A stretch of DNA of 55,658 bases from Actinomycetota bacterium (GTDB lineage Bacteria > Actinomycetota > UBA4738 > HRBIN12), in the NCBI GenBank assembly GCA_048594645.1, contig JBMDWR010000167.1:1-55658 (forward strand), in the 5' to 3' direction. The position numbers were made by a program, and so were the translations under genes. The notes beneath the pieces are model-generated. The model did no database searches and was not told the origin of the DNA. It saw only the letters and a program-made list of their open reading frames with translations. Each line of letters starts with the position of its first letter. Positions within the stretch are counted from its first letter, which is position 1. Below are positions 30,498-42,121 of the stretch, one piece after another.

Positions 30498-32870
30498 TCA
30501 GCCGGCACGCAGTTGCGCCCCGAACCCCCGCGCGAGCCGCTCGACGATGCCGGACACCGCGGTGTCGGCCTCCCCATCGGTCAGCGTCCGGTCCGGCGCC
30601 CGGAGCTCCACGGAGAACGCCAGGCTCTTCTTGCCTTCGGGCAGGGGCGAGCCCTCGAACACGTCGAACAGATGCACCGAGCCCAGGAGCTCGCCGCCCG
30701 CCTCGCGGAGCGCCGCCATGACGTCTCCAGCCGGCGTCGCCGCGTCGAGCGTGAACGCCAGGTCACGGCGTATCGGCGGGTACCTCGGGATCTCGCGATA
30801 CGCGACGTCGCTCACCGCGTGTTCCGCGAGAGCCGCCGCGTCGATCTCGAACACCGCGACGCGCGATGGGAGGTCCAGCTGTTCGACGACGCGCGGATGG
30901 AGCTCGCCGATCGTACCCGCCGGATGCCCGCCGAGCTCGATCACTGCGGATCTCCCCGGGTGCATCGGCGGGCCCGCCGGCTCGCCGAGCGCTCCGTCGT
31001 GGATCGACAGCGCCGCGAACAGGCTCTCGAGCGCACCCTTCGCGTCGAACAGGTCGAGCTCGCGCGGCTCGCCGTGGTGGCCCTCTCGAACCGGTCCGCA
31101 CAGGATCGCAGCGACCATCTCACGCTCGTCGACGGGGTCCGCGGGACGGAACACGTGGCCGACCTCGAACAGTGCCGCGCTCCTGACGCCCCGCGAGATC
31201 GTCCGCCCGACGGCCTGGACCAGGCCCGGAACGAGGCTGGTTCGCAGGAAGGGCTGGTCCGCGGACGGTGGGTTCGCGATGCGCACGCCTTCGGAGTGAC
31301 CCATCAGATCGAGGTCGGCGGAGGACGCGAACGAGAGCGACACGGCCTCCCGGAGCCCCGCGCGCACCATCGCTTCGCGGAGCCGCCGCCGGAACGCATG
31401 GTCCGCGGCGAGCCCGCCGGCCTGCTGGATGCCCGGGACCGTCGACCGCAACGCGTCGTAGCCCTGAACGCGGGCGACCTCCTCGATCAGATCGACCTCG
31501 AGCTCGAGGTCCGGCCGGAAGCTCGGCGCCTCGGCCAAGACGACACCGTCCCGCTTCTCGCTGGCGATGCCGATGCGGCCGAGCGCCTCGGCGATGTCGG
31601 ATGCGGAGACCTCGTGACCGACCAGCAACGACGCGCGTTCGGGACGGACGCCGATGCGGCGCCGCGGCGGCGGCGCCCCGACGTCGGCGGCTCCGGATCG
31701 GACGGTGCCACTGCCGGTCCAGGAGACCATCAGCGCCGCGGCGCGGGCCGCGGCCGGCGCGACGCCCTCGGGGTCGCAGCCGCGCGAGAACCGGATCGCG
31801 GCCTCCGTCGGCAGGAGCAGTCGGCGCGAGGTCCGAAGGATGCCGCGAGGCTCGAAGTACGCGCTCTCGACCAGGACGTTCGTCGTGGACGCCGACACCT
31901 CCGCGGAAGCCGAACCCATGACGCCGGCGATCCCGACCGGCTTCTCGTGGTCCGCGATCAGCAGGTCGTCCTGGGTGAGCAGCCGGTCCACGTCGTCCAG
32001 CGTGCGGAGCCGCTCGCCGTCGCTCGCCCGCCTGACGACGATGCCGCCCGCGAGCAGGTCCATGTCGAACGGGTGCATCGGCTGGCCCATCTCGAGCATC
32101 ACGTAGTTGGTCGCGTCCACGACGGCCGAGAGCGGCCGCATCCCGGCCGCGGTGAGCCTCGCCTGGACCCCGAGCGGCGACGGCCCGTCGACAACGCCGT
32201 GGATCACTCTCGCCAGGTACCGCGGGCAGCGTTCGGGATCGTCCACTTCGATCGAGACCGCCGCCTCGGCGGACGCCTCGCCCTCGGCGACCGACGTATC
32301 GGGCGGCGTGAGCGGGAGACCCGTGGCGCCGGCGACCTCGCGCGCGATGCCGAGCACGGAGAGCAGATCCGGGCGATTCGTCTCGATCTCCAGATCCAGC
32401 ACCGCTTCGTCCAGGCCGAGCGCTCGCTTCACGTCGGCGCCGACGCGGCCGTTCGGCCCCAAGATCAGGATGCCCGAGTGCTCGGCGGAGATCCCAAGCT
32501 CGCGCGCCGAGCAGATCATCCCCTCCGAGACCACCCCTCGGATATCGCGAGCCGAGAGCGGTTCGGGAAGCGCTGGGACGCGCGCGCCCGGACCCGCGTA
32601 CGGGACGAGGTCGCCCGCCACCATGTTGCGAACGCCGACGACGATCTCGCGCTCCGCGCCCCCGACGTCGATGCGGGCGAGGCACAGCTTGTCGGAGTTC
32701 GGATGGTCGCGAACCTCGAGCACCTTGGCGACGACGACGCCGTCGAGGCCTGCCCACGGGCGCTCGATCGATTCGACGTGCATGCCCTTGGCGGCCAGCA
32801 GGTCGCCGAGCGCCTCGGCCGAGAGCTCGACCGGGCAGTATTCGCGCAGCCAGGAGAGGACCAGCCTCAC
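30498..32870 (-). CDS. pheT: phenylalanine--tRNA ligase beta subunit
   Basis: 790 aa. It has the N-terminal tRNA-binding domain (MRLVLSWLREY...), B3/4 and B5 domains and the C-terminal FDX-ACB domain. The GTG start overlaps the pheS stop (GTGA). Confidence 0.95.
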   Translation of the reverse strand: MRLVLSWLREYCPVELSAEALGDLLAAKGMHVESIERPWAGLDGVVVAKVLEVRDHPNSDKLCLARIDVGGAEREIVVGVRNMVAGDLVPYAGPGARVPALPEPLSARDIRGVVSEGMICSARELGISAEHSGILILGPNGRVGADVKRALGLDEAVLDLEIETNRPDLLSVLGIAREVAGATGLPLTPPDTSVAEGEASAEAAVSIEVDDPERCPRYLARVIHGVVDGPSPLGVQARLTAAGMRPLSAVVDATNYVMLEMGQPMHPFDMDLLAGGIVVRRASDGERLRTLDDVDRLLTQDDLLIADHEKPVGIAGVMGSASAEVSASTTNVLVESAYFEPRGILRTSRRLLLPTEAAIRFSRGCDPEGVAPAAARAAALMVSWTGSGTVRSGAADVGAPPPRRRIGVRPERASLLVGHEVSASDIAEALGRIGIASEKRDGVVLAEAPSFRPDLELEVDLIEEVARVQGYDALRSTVPGIQQAGGLAADHAFRRRLREAMVRAGLREAVSLSFASSADLDLMGHSEGVRIANPPSADQPFLRTSLVPGLVQAVGRTISRGVRSAALFEVGHVFRPADPVDEREMVAAILCGPVREGHHGEPRELDLFDAKGALESLFAALSIHDGALGEPAGPPMHPGRSAVIELGGHPAGTIGELHPRVVEQLDLPSRVAVFEIDAAALAEHAVSDVAYREIPRYPPIRRDLAFTLDAATPAGDVMAALREAGGELLGSVHLFDVFEGSPLPEGKKSLAFSVELRAPDRTLTDGEADTAVSGIVERLARGFGAQLRAG

Positions 32871-33925
32871 GCGACGCCCTCGAACTGCTCGAGGAAGCGC
32901 ACGTCATTCTCCCAGAGCAGCCGGATGTCCGGGATGCCGAAACGGATCATCGCAAGCCGGTCGTACCCGCCGCCGAACGCGAACCCCGTGTATCGCTCCG
33001 GGTCGTATCCGACGTTCTGAAGGACCGAAGGGTGGACCATGCCTGCGCCCATGGTCTCGATCCAGCCGGATCGAGCGCACGTGCGGCACCCGGAACCGCC
33101 GCACACGAAGCAGGACACCTCGACCTGACATCCCGGCTCCACGAACGGGAAGAACGACGGCGTCAGCCGCACCTCACGCTCGTCGCCAAGCAGCGCGCGG
33201 TAGAACGTCTCGAGCGTTCCCTTGAGATCCGCGAACGAGATGCCCTCGTCGACCGCGAGCCCCTCCACTTGGTGGAACACGGGCATGTTCTTCGCGGTCG
33301 TCTCCTCGTTGCGGTAGACGCGCCCGGGCACGATCACGTACACGGGCGGCTGCTGGTTCTCCATCGTCCTGATCTGCATCGGCGAGGTGTGCGTTCGGAG
33401 CAGGAGCTCGGGATGGCCCGGGACGTCCAGGAACGTCGTGTCCATCGTCGTGCGCGCCGGATGGTCGGGCGGGATGTTGAGGGCGTCGAAGTTGTGCCAC
33501 TCGTCCTCGACCTCGGGTCCCTCCACGACGGAGTAGCCCATCCGCGTGAAGATGTCGACGATCTCGGCCTCGACGACCGTCAGCGGGTGCAGCGATCCCC
33601 GCCGGAGCGAGCGCCCAGGCAGCGTCACGTCGACGCGGTCGGCCTCCAGCCGCTCGGCCTCGCCGCCCTCCTCCAGTTGCGTGCGGCGAGCGTCGATCGC
33701 CGCCCTCAGCTCCGCGAACGCCTCGTTCGTACGCCTGCCGACGTCACGTCGCGCGTCCGGCGGCAGCGACCCGAGTGCGCTCTGAACGCTCGAGATCGGC
33801 GATCGCCGACCGAGGATCGCGATCTTCGCCTCGTCGAGCGCCTCGAGCGTCGGCGCATCGGAGATCAGCGCCCGGCCGCGCTCGAGCTGTTCGTCGAGGA
33901 TGCGGGCGGCATCGGCCGGTTCCAT
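32867..33925 (-). CDS. pheS: phenylalanine--tRNA ligase alpha subunit
   Basis: 352 aa with class II motifs (HPARTTMDTF, LLRTHTSPMQIR, PGRVYRNE, FAFGGGYDRLAMIRFGI). Confidence 0.95.
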   Translation of the reverse strand: MEPADAARILDEQLERGRALISDAPTLEALDEAKIAILGRRSPISSVQSALGSLPPDARRDVGRRTNEAFAELRAAIDARRTQLEEGGEAERLEADRVDVTLPGRSLRRGSLHPLTVVEAEIVDIFTRMGYSVVEGPEVEDEWHNFDALNIPPDHPARTTMDTTFLDVPGHPELLLRTHTSPMQIRTMENQQPPVYVIVPGRVYRNEETTAKNMPVFHQVEGLAVDEGISFADLKGTLETFYRALLGDEREVRLTPSFFPFVEPGCQVEVSCFVCGGSGCRTCARSGWIETMGAGMVHPSVLQNVGYDPERYTGFAFGGGYDRLAMIRFGIPDIRLLWENDVRFLEQFEGVA

Positions 33926-33937
33926 GGTCCGGCGAGT

Positions 33938-35410
33938 CTAGCAACCGCGTTTCGGCCCTCCGGAACGGCCTCGATCGCCGGGAAGCGATGGGCTCGGAAG
34001 GTCGAGCGTGAACCGGAGCTCACCGTCGGAAACGCGTGCCGACACGTCGCCGCCGTGCGCACGAGCGACGCCGTGGGCGACGAACAGACCGGTCTTGCTC
34101 CCCGAACCCGTCCCCGGCGCCTGCAGCACGAACAGCCCCTCCGCCTCGTCCTGCGAGAGGCGGGTATCCGCACGATGCGCCTCGACCGACAAACGGTCGT
34201 CGCGCAGGCGCCCGTCGACCAGCACCGGCCCCTCGTTCGCCCACCACACGAGCGACTCGACGAACGCCTCGAGCATCAGGCGGAGCCGCTCGGGGTCGAC
34301 GAACGCCACGACGTCCCCACCGGTCCACCGCACCGGCGCGTGGTCTGGATCGCGGGCGAGCGACGACGCGATCTGCTCGACGACCTGGCCGACGTCGGTG
34401 CGCTCGGGGAACAACTCGACCGCGTCGGCGGCCACGCGAGCCGCGTCCACCAGTTGGCGCACGATCGCGTTCAGGCGGTCGCTGTCGAACTCGATGCCGG
34501 CGAGCATCAACTCGCGGTCTTCGGCCGAGATCTGGTCCCACCGCGTCGCGAGGGTGTGGCTGAGCCCCTTCATCGCCGTGAGCGGCGAACGGATGTCGTG
34601 CGCGGCCGCGGCGATCACGGTCTCGAGCACCGCCCGGTGGCCTTCCCGACGCTGCCGCTTCCACTCGAACAGGCATACGCTGGCGGCGGCGGCCAGGTTG
34701 AGTGATTCCGCTCGACGGTCGATCGGCACGCGAACCGCGGCGTCCGCGAGCGTGGCCATCTCGTCAGGGAGCCCCCACGCCTCGTTGCCGAACAGGAACG
34801 CGACCGGGTCGGCGAGGTCCTGCTCGTACAGGTCCGCCTCGGCCGAGGCGTCCATCGCGAGCACCCTGAGCCCGCGCTCGCGGACGGCTTCGACCGCCGC
34901 CTCGGTGTCGGCGTCGCGAACGACGGGGACATGGAACAGCGACCCGGCCGAAGCCCTGACCGTCTTCGGGTTGTACACGTCGACCGACGAGGACGAGAAG
35001 ACGACGGCGTCCGCGCCTGCCGCATCGGCCGAACGCAGGACGGTGCCGGCGTTGCCGGGATCGCGGACGGCGTGCAAGATCGCGACGCACGACGGCCGTG
35101 CCACGTCGCCCAGCTCGATGTCGACGAACGGCGCGACGCCGACGAGGCCCTGTGGCGTGACGGTGCCGGTCAGGCGCGCCATCACCTCGTCGCTCACGTG
35201 CACCGTCTGGACGTCGCAGGCTCGAGCGCGTTCGACCAGCCGGTGCGAGGGATCGGTGTGGAACAGCGTTCGCAGGCCGCCGTCCAGGGCGAGCGCCTCG
35301 CCCACGGCCTGCGCGCCTTCGACGAGGAATCGGCGTTCGCCCTCCCGGAAGGTGCGCTTGTGGAGCTTGAGCGCCGCCGCGACCCTCGGGTTGCGGGTGG
35401 AGGTGATCAC
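33938..35410 (-). CDS. fusion protein: TrmH/SpoU-family RNA 2'-O-methyltransferase + HisKA/HATPase-like histidine-kinase transmitter module
   Basis: GTG 35410 lies 5 nt after GGGAG and 30 nt after the rplT stop. aa 1-~250 are SpoU-like (VRDPGNAGTVLRSADAAGA, FLFGNEAWGLP, ESLNLAAAASVCLFE). aa ~262-490 carry an H-box AAAHDIRSPLTAMKGL (His codon 34598-34600) and an N-box-like ESLVWWANEG. The G2-like segment is GTGSGSKTGLFVAHGVARAHGG and no DxGxG G1 box is present. It is one uninterrupted ORF. Confidence 0.8.
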   Translation of the reverse strand: MITSTRNPRVAAALKLHKRTFREGERRFLVEGAQAVGEALALDGGLRTLFHTDPSHRLVERARACDVQTVHVSDEVMARLTGTVTPQGLVGVAPFVDIELGDVARPSCVAILHAVRDPGNAGTVLRSADAAGADAVVFSSSSVDVYNPKTVRASAGSLFHVPVVRDADTEAAVEAVRERGLRVLAMDASAEADLYEQDLADPVAFLFGNEAWGLPDEMATLADAAVRVPIDRRAESLNLAAAASVCLFEWKRQRREGHRAVLETVIAAAAHDIRSPLTAMKGLSHTLATRWDQISAEDRELMLAGIEFDSDRLNAIVRQLVDAARVAADAVELFPERTDVGQVVEQIASSLARDPDHAPVRWTGGDVVAFVDPERLRLMLEAFVESLVWWANEGPVLVDGRLRDDRLSVEAHRADTRLSQDEAEGLFVLQAPGTGSGSKTGLFVAHGVARAHGGDVSARVSDGELRFTLDLPSPSLPGDRGRSGGPKRGC

Positions 35411-36695: not shown

Positions 36696-36782
36696 ACCCG
36701 AACACGGTGAACAGAACCCGGTGAGTATAGGTGCTGGTCGTCGAGGCTGTCGATGCTCGGCGCACGCGCCTGTCGGGGAGGC

Positions 36783-37069: not shown

Positions 37070-37420
37070 TCACCAATCGGGCTCGAGCGGTCTGCCGTAG
37101 TCATCCTCCAGTCGGAGGGTATCGTCCTCGGTCGTGTAGCCGTACGCGATCTCGAGCACGCGGCCGCGCGACGCGCCGGGGTTCGCGATCCGGTGCGTGG
37201 TCTCGGCGCTCACCATGAACTCCTCACCGGAGGAGGCCTCCACCTGACGGTTGCCGATCTGCACGCTGAGACCCGGATCGAGCACGACCCACATCTCGTC
37301 CCGCATCTGGTGGTAGTGCACGCTGGTCTCCTGTCCAGGTTCGACCGTGATCACCCGAACGGAGCTCGGCTGGTTGAGCGCGTACGTCACCACCTTGCCC
37401 CATGGCTTGTCGACGATCAC
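37070..37420 (-). CDS. cupin domain protein (mannose-6-phosphate isomerase type II C-terminal-like)
   Basis: 116 aa. DKPWG...L.....V..ITV.PG...S.H.H..R.E.W.V is the typical cupin motif 1/2 arrangement. GTG 37420 lies 3 nt after the ribH stop. Confidence 0.75.
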   Translation of the reverse strand: MIVDKPWGKVVTYALNQPSSVRVITVEPGQETSVHYHQMRDEMWVVLDPGLSVQIGNRQVEASSGEEFMVSAETTHRIANPGASRGRVLEIAYGYTTEDDTLRLEDDYGRPLEPDW

Positions 37421-40901: not shown

Positions 40902-40971
40902 GCCTCTCCGATCCCGAGGCGAGGCGACGGGGAAAGGGCAGGAGGCGGCAGCGTCGCTGCCGGCACCGCCC

Positions 40972-41096
40972 GTCCTCTCCCATCCCGACTCTGACGGTCG
41001 GTCCCGGAATTCCACCGGGTCAACCCTCGGCCGGCTGCCGAGGGGTCGCGGACTCTCACCGCCGGTGGGGACTTGCACCCCGCCCCGAAGACAGGC
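40972..41096 (-). promoter_or_regulatory. FMN riboswitch (RFN element) leader of the ribD-ribE-ribBA-ribH operon
   Basis: Minus strand GTCTTCGGGGCGGGGTGCAAGTCCCCACCGGCGGTGAGAGTCCGCGACCC...GGGTTGACCCGGTGGAATTCCGGGACCGACCGTCAGAGTCGGGATGGGAGAGGAC reproduces the conserved RFN core segments. A TATACT -10-like hexamer lies at 41111-41116, just upstream. Confidence 0.9.
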
Positions 41097-41185: not shown

Positions 41186-42121
41186 TCAGTCGAGCTTGCG
41201 GCGATCGATCGCGTACGACGACCGCTGCTGACGCTTCGCGTACTGCTTCATCTCGGTCGCGACGGACACGGCCTCGCCGTAGTGGGCGAACGTCCGCACG
41301 TTGGTGGTCGCGATGCCGATCGAGATGCCGACGAGTGGCAGTCGCTGCAGTTCACCCTTGCGGTCCTCCACCTCGACGTACCCGCGCTCGACGTCCTCGG
41401 GCTCGTAGAACCCGCCGATCTTCGCGTCGAACGCGTCGACCACCCGTCGCGCGACGGCCTCGGCCGTCTCCGGGCTCACGACCGCGACGAAGTCGTCACC
41501 GCCGACGTGACCGACGAACCCGTCCGCGCCGGCGAACTCGACGACCGCGTCCTGGATCATGCGCGCCGTCGCCTGGATCAGCCGGTCCCCGCGGACGAAG
41601 CCCTTCTGGTCGTTGTACGCCTTGAAGTTGTCCATGTCCGCGTACAGGACGGCGAACGGGGACCCGTCGCGCACCATCCGCTCGATCTCCTCCTGGATGC
41701 GGATGTTCCCCGGCAGTCCCGTGAGGGGCGACAGGTTGCGCATCTCCTTGGCGCGACGGAGCGTCCCCTTCACGCGGGCCAACAGCTCGATCGGATCGAA
41801 CGGCTTGATGATGTAGTCGTCGGCGCCGGCGGTGAGCCCGAGGACCTTGTCGGTCGCGAGGGCCTTGGCCGTGAGCATGATGATCGACGTTCCGGAGGTC
41901 TGGGGGTTGCGTCGCAGACGGTGCGCGACCTCGAAGCCGTCGATCCTCGGCATCATCACGTCGAGCAGGACCAGGTCGGGCCGGAGCGCCGCGGCCTTCT
42001 CGAGAGCCTCCTCGCCGTCCGAGGCGACGGAGACGTCGTACCCGGCGCTCCGCAGGTTCACCTCGACGAACCGCGCGATGTCGGGATCGTCGTCGACGAC
42101 GAGGATCGACTCGGGCATCAT
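41186..42121 (-). CDS. response regulator with receiver (REC) and GGDEF-type domain (A-site reads GGDDF)
   Basis: 311 aa. REC has ILVVDDD...LVLLDVMMP...(T)AK. The GGDEF domain has SPLTGLPGN...LYADMDNFKAYND..GF.RGD...GHVGGDDFVAV. The start overlaps the rpe stop. Confidence 0.9.
   Translation of the reverse strand: MMPESILVVDDDPDIARFVEVNLRSAGYDVSVASDGEEALEKAAALRPDLVLLDVMMPRIDGFEVAHRLRRNPQTSGTSIIMLTAKALATDKVLGLTAGADDYIIKPFDPIELLARVKGTLRRAKEMRNLSPLTGLPGNIRIQEEIERMVRDGSPFAVLYADMDNFKAYNDQKGFVRGDRLIQATARMIQDAVVEFAGADGFVGHVGGDDFVAVVSPETAEAVARRVVDAFDAKIGGFYEPEDVERGYVEVEDRKGELQRLPLVGISIGIATTNVRTFAHYGEAVSVATEMKQYAKRQQRSSYAIDRRKLD

Follow-up and report, generated by a model that had tools for sequence, protein, structure and literature searches.

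Contig JBMDWR010000167.1 of an Actinomycetota bacterium (assembly GCA_048594645.1), of which we analyzed positions 1 to 55,658, referred to as the window, carries between rplT and pheS a single gene (33938..35410, minus strand) in which a SpoU/TrmH-class RNA methyltransferase is joined in frame to a module derived from a histidine kinase. Comparison with related proteins indicates that the kinase half has kept its phospho-acceptor histidine box and lost the residues that hold ATP, and that the fusion derives from an overlapping trmH–kinase gene pair found in the same slot of Acidimicrobiales genomes. What is new here is the domain combination, its fixed position in a translation operon, and a gradation that begins with a split, active kinase and ends with a fused module predicted to be kinase-dead; the component domains and the idea of a pseudokinase were already known.

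Continuity of the Fusion Gene

The minus strand of the window encodes a single unbroken open reading frame (ORF) of 490 aa at 33938–35410, starting with GTG at 35410, with GGGAG 5 nt before it, and ending with TAG at 33938–33940. The frame begins 29 nt downstream of the rplT stop, and the pheS start follows 12 nt past its end; an alternative longer ORF reaching 35620 only overlaps the end of rplT, and the public gene call on this contig is also 490 aa. The G+C content at third codon positions (GC3) is 0.905 in the N-terminal domain, 0.885 in the SPOUT domain, 0.946 in the dimerization and histidine phosphotransfer (DHp) domain and 0.891 in the domain resembling a catalytic and ATP-binding (CA) domain, values that match pheS. 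At least 13 independent Logan contigs encode exactly this 490-aa product, all four variants in the 90% cluster of the window protein are 490 aa long, and about 130 full-length fusions were recovered elsewhere, from JGI, ENA, NCBI and Logan.

That the ORF might be an assembly, frameshift or read-through artifact joining two genes is a reading to which we assign next to no probability. It could appeal to the existence of trmH and the kinase as separate genes in Acidimicrobiales, and to broken versions of the fusion in several long-read assemblies (loci L038 and L001); on the contigs with broken versions, however, rpmI, rplT, pheS and pheT are fragmented as well. Because one frame with uniform GC3, the identical Logan copies and the fusions elsewhere all speak against it, an artifact is excluded as far as possible without raw reads, and the uninterrupted methyltransferase–kinase ORF described in the initial annotation is real.

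Frequent frameshifts were seen in several long-read metagenome assemblies (the whole of locus L038, L001:10432-13690 and the C terminus of P0040), recognizable by pheT and OTCase genes that are split and by rpmI and rplT genes that are truncated. They yield truncated or chimeric gene calls within the family (e.g., 220, 266, 288 and 405 aa), so that length statistics taken at face value mislead for this family. P0008 (220 aa), considered as a true split in the window's clade, was rejected: its locus, L038, where two ORFs overlap by 61 nt, is also frameshifted in rpmI, rplT, pheS and pheT. Short calls on long-read contigs (P0012, P0023, P0080 and P0084) are likewise truncations; full-length members are present in the same 90% clusters as P0012 (P0382) and P0023 (P0419). 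The last 18 codons of the window gene (SPSLPGDRGRSGGPKRGC, residues 473–490, 33941..33994, minus strand, as are all features of the gene given below) have a GC3 of 0.56 and a second-position G+C of 0.83, unlike the remaining gene. This C-terminal tail is not conserved, relatives stop before it, and it is modeled with a predicted local distance difference test score (pLDDT) of only ~53; it is probably a recent read-through extension toward pheS.

The Methyltransferase Half

To describe the protein we combined Pfam searches with an AlphaFold2 monomer model built from a 72-sequence alignment (mean pLDDT 93), in which an L30e-like domain is followed by a SPOUT domain whose last helix spans residues 239–256, a break at 257–261, a helical hairpin and an alpha/beta domain at 336–472. 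The domains expected from the initial annotation are found with differing strength: SpoU_methylase and HisKA score above their cut-offs, and HATPase_c scores below its cut-off, yet over nearly the full profile. The predicted RNA- or substrate-binding L30e-like domain (residues 7–91, 35138..35392) matches MRM3-like_sub_bind (PF22435; residues 7–91, E = 2.8e-15, 56.9 bits) and SpoU_sub_bind (PF08032; E = 2.1e-7, 31.6 bits), both above cut-off, and its model superposes on RlmR and RlmP. The SPOUT (SpoU/TrmH) catalytic domain (residues 109–256, 34643..35086) matches SpoU_methylase (PF00588) over residues 109–248 (E = 9.6e-37; 126.7 bits against a cut-off of 29.7).

Catalytic motif residues of the SPOUT domain, namely N120 and R126 of motif 1, E210 of motif 2 and E235-S236-L237-N238 of motif 3, are invariant in 72/72 aligned fusions. 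Alignment to RlmR pairs its N122, R128, D235, S236 and N238 with N120, R126, E235, S236 and N238 of the window protein; in RlmR, mutation of N122, R128, D235 or N238 nearly abolishes activity, and S236 also contributes. Foldseek comparison of the N-terminal half of the predicted model with the PDB retrieves RlmR (9h1k_A; 37% identity, target TM-score [TMt] 0.89, root-mean-square deviation 2.3 Å, 258 columns) and RlmP/YsgA (7qiu; 32% identity, TMt 0.85–0.88), and a sequence search of the PDB gives E values of 1.7e-36 and 2.7e-33, respectively. NCBIfam equivalog models for RlmB (111.9 against a cut-off of 160.15), NshR/TsnR (70 against 425) and TrmH (66.2 against 227) all fall far short, and we therefore assign no named-enzyme equivalence.

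Sequence and model place this half with the L30e-like plus SpoU/TrmH-class SPOUT 2′-O-methyltransferases of the RlmB/RlmP/RlmR group, closest to RlmR and RlmP, and it is very likely an active methyltransferase. The products of RlmR and RlmP are Um2552 and Gm2553, respectively, which lie in the A-loop of 23S rRNA (PMC12123411, PMC9380741); by analogy, the most likely target of the window enzyme is 23S rRNA in the A-loop region (U2552/G2553 type).

The Kinase-Like Half: Loss of the ATP Pocket and Retention of the Histidine Box

To follow the kinase-like half across its family, we aligned 130 full-length fusions, which form two clean clades, and applied an 80% redundancy filter. Clade B comprises 41 sequences (24 after filtering); clade A, which includes the window protein, comprises 89, of which 47 are non-redundant and span 43–75% overall identity.

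The first part of the half is a DHp/HisKA helical hairpin (residues 262–327, 34430..34627), recognized by Pfam HisKA (PF00512; residues 263–326, E = 1.4e-9) with 38.3 bits against a gathering score of 26.9 and modeled as two helices, 262–289 and 296–327. The phospho-acceptor His271, conserved in clades A and B, lies in the H-box AAAHDIRSPLT, its codon (34598..34600) exactly where the initial annotation placed it. The second part is a CA-like domain of the Bergerat fold (residues 336–472, 33995..34405), modeled with pLDDT >90 across most of its length, whose nucleotide pocket appears to be disabled: HATPase_c aligns to residues 372–473 with only 14.6 bits against a cut-off of 26.4, yet covers positions 2–109 of its 111, and it scores 85–98 bits in clade-B and split-kinase relatives. 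By Foldseek, the C-terminal half (DHp plus CA-like) matches the kinase HK853 (6rh0) with TMt 0.78, and ZraS is matched in the PDB sequence search at E = 1.4e-12.

The N-box Asn and the G1 Asp are the residues universally needed for Mg-ATP and adenine binding. The N-box remnant FVESLVWWANEG (residues 383–394, 34229..34264) has Ser386 in place of the Asn and Trp389/Trp390 in place of Lys/Tyr; position 386 is Asn in 100% of clade B and never in clade A (Ala or Ser), and positions 389/390 are the canonical Lys/Tyr in clade B and Trp-Trp in clade A (98% and 94%). The former G1 box AHRADTR (residues 411–417, 34160..34180) reads Arg413-Ala-Asp-Thr-Arg where D-x-G-x-G is canonical, so that Arg413 replaces the adenine-binding Asp; this position is Asp in 96% of clade B and Arg in 100% of clade A. 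A G2-like segment, GTGSGSKTGLFVA (residues 433–445, 34076..34114), keeps several glycines, but the Gly that never varies in clade B is replaced by Lys439 (Lys in 79% of clade A). The ATP lid before it, full length in clade B, is 3–6 residues shorter in the window protein and in clade A. The F box is canonical in clade B, and position 375 is Arg in 100% of clade A. These alignments bear out every motif call of the initial annotation, from the N-box remnant without its Asn (VESLVWWANEG) and the missing DxGxG to the G2-like segment, and with the sub-threshold HATPase_c score they uphold its description of a degenerate ATPase domain.

Autokinase activity is thus very probably absent from the window protein, since the Mg/ATP Asn and the adenine-binding Asp are both lost, the latter being Arg in all 47 non-redundant relatives; on the same grounds, the phosphorelay kinase proposed in the initial annotation is not supported. 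The histidine box has had the opposite fate: H271, D272, R274 and P276 are each 100% conserved and S275 98% conserved in the 47 clade-A sequences, and the 24 clade-B sequences likewise all have H271, R274 and P276. Because of this absolute conservation we propose that phospho-His chemistry persists in the C-terminal module, a proposal that we regard as evenly poised. The mean frequency of the major residue in clade A is 0.55 in the CA-like domain against 0.74 in SPOUT, and in clade B 0.56 against 0.59. From these frequencies, the CA-like domain appears to be under relaxed selection relative to the methyltransferase and not to have been lost; in clade A it has gained invariant residues specific to that clade.

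Between the last SPOUT helix and DHp helix 1 lies a short, non-helical hinge (residues 257–261, 34628..34642; pLDDT 79–82). The spacing from Ser236 to His271 across it is 34 or 35 aa in most clade-A members and ranges from 33 to 47. A rigid signaling helix running from SPOUT into DHp is disfavored by the break in the model and by spacings of 34 and 35 both being common. As the initial annotation stated, the protein lacks a transmembrane or classical sensor domain, being without transmembrane, HAMP or PAS input.

Origin from a Conserved trmH–Kinase Gene Pair

The slot between rplT and pheS, which the initial annotation described as the usual place of a stand-alone TrmH-family enzyme, as our comparison supports, holds more than a methyltransferase in Acidimicrobiales. 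In one metagenome-assembled genome (locus L034), the TGA stop of a 266-aa TrmH gene overlaps the ATG of a 355-aa PAS-HisKA-HATPase_c gene (ATGA), and the kinase gene also overlaps pheS. Such an overlapping trmH plus PAS-HisKA-HATPase pair occupies the slot in 4/4 Acidimicrobiales loci (L034:10001-11865, L035:4300-6047, L036:4252-6095 and L037:4250-6056), with overlaps of 4 or 8 nt; the last three were picked only for encoding homologues of the L034 kinase, and their neighboring genes are intact. The split-type kinase forms >120 clusters at ≥63% identity. Its ATP-binding domain is fully canonical (HATPase_c, 98 bits), and over 239 residues the L034 kinase shares 65% identity with the kinase module fused in P0143. 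This conserved kinase within the translation operon of Acidimicrobiales appears to be undescribed.

Intermediate forms also exist. PAS-retaining fusions of 648–733 aa (P0287, P0286, P0302 and P0301) have a PAS domain and a long low-complexity linker between SPOUT and HisKA, and the 733-aa P0287 (L030:7001-9202) is encoded in the same rplT–pheS slot. A neighbor-joining tree of DHp–CA cores, which carries no support values and is only indicative, nests several fused proteins among the split kinases and recovers the window's clade as monophyletic, with P0137, P0140, P0150 and P0199 as its sister group. Taken together, homology, synteny and this tree show that the C-terminal half descends from a cytoplasmic PAS-HisKA-HATPase kinase. 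The fusion derives from the conserved gene pair, given that the same slot holds overlapping TrmH and PAS-kinase genes in all four Acidimicrobiales loci; by this comparison, the two genes were fused in the window's lineage, the PAS domain was lost, and the ATP pocket was dismantled by replacement of Asn with Ser/Ala, of Asp with Arg and of Lys/Tyr with Trp-Trp and by shortening of the lid.

The family is largely metagenomic. Queried with the C-terminal 241 residues, the searched databases returned 198 proteins at E<1e-5, nearly all of them metagenomic fragments from uncultured Actinomycetota that also carry SpoU. A search of 1.84 billion cluster representatives gave ~20 full-length fusion clusters (449–569 aa, down to 30% identity), and a profile search added >80 further fusion clusters (90% identity clusters). 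Available orthologue DNA encodes proteins of 55–68% amino acid identity at 70% GC. A contig scan with the C-terminal query, which used over-specific peptide patterns, returned generic kinases of 22–32% identity and three short matches of ~50% (L017, L018 and L020). Public names for family members are [quoted passage not shown] at NCBI and "signal transduction histidine kinase" or "KdpD" at JGI, each of which misses half of the protein.

The Operon and Its Neighbors

Directly upstream of the fusion lies rplT (L20; 35440..35799; MARVKRSV...), identified by translation and synteny and part of the same operon; pheS (32867..33925; Pfam tRNA-synt_2d, 1.1e-94) is directly downstream and is followed by pheT (30498–32870; Pfam pheT domains), all on the minus strand. 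The order infC-rpmI-rplT-[fusion]-pheS-pheT is found in 7/7 intact fusion loci examined (L001 and L028–L033), and the frameshifted locus L038 has the identical order. Between 30300 and 37200 the sole sigma-70-like promoter match is TCGACA-18-TATACT at 36724–36753 (minus strand), upstream of infC, and no intrinsic-terminator-like site was found in the window from infC through pheT. A promoter-like site before infC and no terminator-like site down to pheT together suggest that infC to pheT form a six-gene operon. Rfam detected no RNA element in or beside the fusion gene and no L20-leader-type element upstream of infC.

The sole Rfam match in the window is a flavin mononucleotide (FMN) riboswitch (RF00050, 103 bits; 40968–41096, minus strand) upstream of ribD-ribE-ribBA-ribH. 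After ribH and before cspA lies a small cupin gene of 116 aa (37070–37420, minus strand), similar to the C terminus of mannose-6-phosphate isomerase; the same 116-aa gene occurs in clade-A loci L001, L032, L033 and L038 and is absent from the Acidimicrobiales loci.

The only receiver protein detected in the window is a REC-GGDEF protein encoded at 41186–42121 (minus strand), 5.8 kb from the fusion. Its gene sits between rpe and the FMN-riboswitch-controlled rib operon in the window and in L001, L031 and L032; the arrangement is absent in the deeper clade-A locus L033 and in L029 and L030. The protein is ~85–90% identical to its L001 and L031 orthologues, while the fusion protein is 55–68% identical in the same genomes. 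Its signature reads GGDDF and not GGDEF or GGEEF, Pfam covers the first 112 of 161 GGDEF positions, and a weak Cas10 palm match was obtained.

Proposed Mechanism and Alternative Explanations

We propose that the fusion is an active A-loop-type 23S rRNA 2′-O-methyltransferase tethered to an ATP-independent phospho-His module of the ChpT/Spo0B/RetS kind, a model as a whole that we hold at even chances. Under this proposal, the C-terminal module would no longer autophosphorylate. Its phospho-His chemistry at His271 would need no ATP and would involve a receiver domain encoded at another locus: the module would accept phosphoryl groups from a response regulator or a different kinase, or would dephosphorylate it, in the manner of ChpT, Spo0B and RetS. 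The short flexible hinge would couple the module physically to the methyltransferase dimer and hence to 50S assembly intermediates, and co-transcription with translation genes would link its dosage to ribosome production. The two halves could be coupled by substrate sensing, by reciprocal regulation or by co-localization on pre-50S particles. SpoU-type enzymes are obligate dimers in which the partner protomer supplies the catalytic Arg, and their SPOUT interface helices are perpendicular. DHp domains are dimeric too. Since both halves belong to dimeric families, the fusion protein is probably a dimer.

Several points weigh against this proposal. His271 could be conserved for a structural or protein-binding reason, and the CA-like domain may bind nucleotide in a non-canonical way; HATPase_c still scores at E≤1e-5 in 37/72 members overall, some of them in clade A. 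No response regulator is adjacent to the fusion, and none lies within 5–10 kb in the window and 12 related loci. The monomer model is silent on how a perpendicular-helix SPOUT dimer and a parallel DHp bundle would coexist. On the methyltransferase side, the target is read from the nearest solved homologues alone, and the RlmR RNA-contact residues N154 and T156 are both Ala in the window protein.

The alternative that comes nearest to the proposed tethered phospho-His module, although we consider it less probable, is that of a pure pseudokinase scaffold, in which DHp and CA-like domains without any phospho-chemistry would stabilize or orient the SPOUT dimer or dock on a protein or a pre-50S particle. 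The degenerate nucleotide pocket, the flexible hinge, the absence of a partner regulator nearby and the dependence of SPOUT enzymes on dimerization for their catalytic Arg all fit such a role, as does the CA-like domain, which, measured against SPOUT, evolves faster in clade A than it does in clade B. On the other hand, the near-complete conservation of the five H-box residues H271, D272, R274, S275 and P276 across 47 sequences would be unexpected in a purely structural helix, and stand-alone RlmR and RlmP dimerize without such a module. In the pseudokinase DivL the His is replaced by Tyr, unlike the retained His271. The initial annotation had offered a pseudokinase scaffold as its fallback, which lies nearer the evidence than its main reading, but the invariant His box argues for retained phospho-His chemistry. 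A further variant, that the former ATP pocket has been re-purposed for another, probably anionic, ligand or for RNA, bound by the newly fixed Arg413, Lys439 and Trp389/Trp390, so that the methyltransferase would be regulated or targeted by it, seems to us the least likely of the functional readings. The replacements are highly conserved and do not look like random decay (R413 and R375 100%, W389 98%, W390 94%, K439 79%), but the idea is entirely inferential, and the Trp-Trp pair and Arg may just fill and salt-bridge an empty pocket.

Equally improbable, or nearly so, is a true sensor histidine kinase, in which occupancy of the methyltransferase by S-adenosylmethionine (SAM), S-adenosylhomocysteine (SAH) or rRNA would drive ATP-dependent autophosphorylation and phosphotransfer, e.g., to the REC-GGDEF protein. 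HisKA scores above threshold, the His is invariant and the overall HK853-like fold is kept in the model; moreover, the ATP-binding boxes are all intact in clade-B relatives, which makes it probable that the ancestral fusion worked as a kinase. In clade A, however, both the Asn and the Lys of the N-box and the Asp of G1 have been replaced and the ATP lid has lost residues, and in the window protein HATPase_c falls under the Pfam threshold. Input from the methyltransferase, as the initial annotation envisaged, is weakened by the separate PAS-kinase genes and the TrmH-PAS-kinase fusions, in which relatives have a PAS sensor of their own, and by a SPOUT-to-His linker that varies by single residues; for these reasons we favor a tether over a rigid signaling helix. 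The same annotation correctly found no adjacent response regulator and suggested the REC-GGDEF protein as partner. The window encodes no other detectable REC protein, and synteny of its gene extends to L001, L031 and L032, but the gene is missing from that position in L033, L029 and L030; its position is conserved synteny within a subclade and not evidence of partnership, and we rejected it as a supported cognate partner.

The broadest reading would make the trmH–kinase pair or fusion a ribosome-biogenesis checkpoint wired to two-component signaling. Binding of the SPOUT dimer to the unmethylated 23S rRNA A-loop of pre-50S particles, or to SAM/SAH, would determine the state of the attached DHp domain (phosphatase or phosphotransfer), and through that state an orphan receiver would be controlled. 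We think this unlikely; if it were true, the orphan receiver may be the REC-GGDEF protein encoded 5.8 kb upstream, and ribosome production would be coupled to cyclic di-GMP or another output.

Whatever the chemistry of the module, a histidine kinase conserved inside an infC-rpmI-rplT-pheST operon is unusual; to our knowledge, the cues that two-component systems are described as sensing are almost always external or metabolic. In two large actinobacterial lineages the kinase gene overlaps, or is fused to, the gene of a 23S rRNA methyltransferase that acts late, and this pairing predicts that maturation of the large subunit is tied directly, by regulation or physically, to phospho-signaling. The split PAS-kinase, fused PAS-kinase, fused kinase and fused kinase-dead protein that keeps its His also make up a natural series for the passage from kinase to pseudokinase or phosphotransferase.

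Comparison with Known Systems

No description of a protein or operon combining SpoU/TrmH with a histidine kinase was found among 8.3 million full texts, and the two main SPOUT reviews do not mention histidine kinases; the architecture thus appears undescribed, as the initial annotation had supposed. For the methyltransferase half, the closest known systems are RlmR (Thermus thermophilus TTC1712, Um2552; PDB 9H1K, 9MUK and 4X3L) and RlmP/YsgA (Bacillus subtilis, Gm2553; PDB 7QIU), which have the same L30e-like plus SPOUT layout and share the catalytic Asn, Arg, Ser and Asn. Both stop at the last SPOUT helix, whereas the window protein runs 234 residues further (257–490) through DHp and CA-like domains. 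For the other half, class I HisKA kinases such as HK853, EnvZ and ZraS have the same DHp hairpin with an H-D-x-R-S-P-L-T H-box followed by a Bergerat fold; compared with them, the window protein is without the N-box Asn, the G1 DxGxG, transmembrane, HAMP or PAS domains and a nearby regulator, its lid is shortened, and its HATPase_c match is sub-threshold. The split pair of Acidimicrobiales occupies the same slot with an orthologous methyltransferase and a kinase orthologous to the clade-B fused modules (65%), and differs in being two polypeptides with a PAS sensor and a canonical ATP-binding domain.

RetS of Pseudomonas aeruginosa is kinase-like, siphons phosphate from GacS and dephosphorylates it, so that a member of the histidine kinase family acts by phosphatase, phosphoryl-acceptor and binding mechanisms (PMC5992135), as the window module might. 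It matches only weakly by phmmer (6DK8, 2.6e-4) and differs in being a membrane hybrid with periplasmic sensor and receiver domains and no link to RNA modification. The closest functional analogy is to ChpT of Caulobacter and Spo0B of Bacillus, which likewise combine a phospho-His DHp-type hairpin with an ATP-blind CA-like domain and have no autokinase activity; ChpT has a class I kinase fold whose CA-like domain is unable to bind ATP (PMC3433190), a property that for the window protein we infer. Neither ChpT nor Spo0B was among the 49 PDB sequences matched at E≤1e-3. Unlike both, the window module can be traced to a recent ancestor that was a canonical HisKA kinase, and its fusion partner is an RNA-modifying enzyme.

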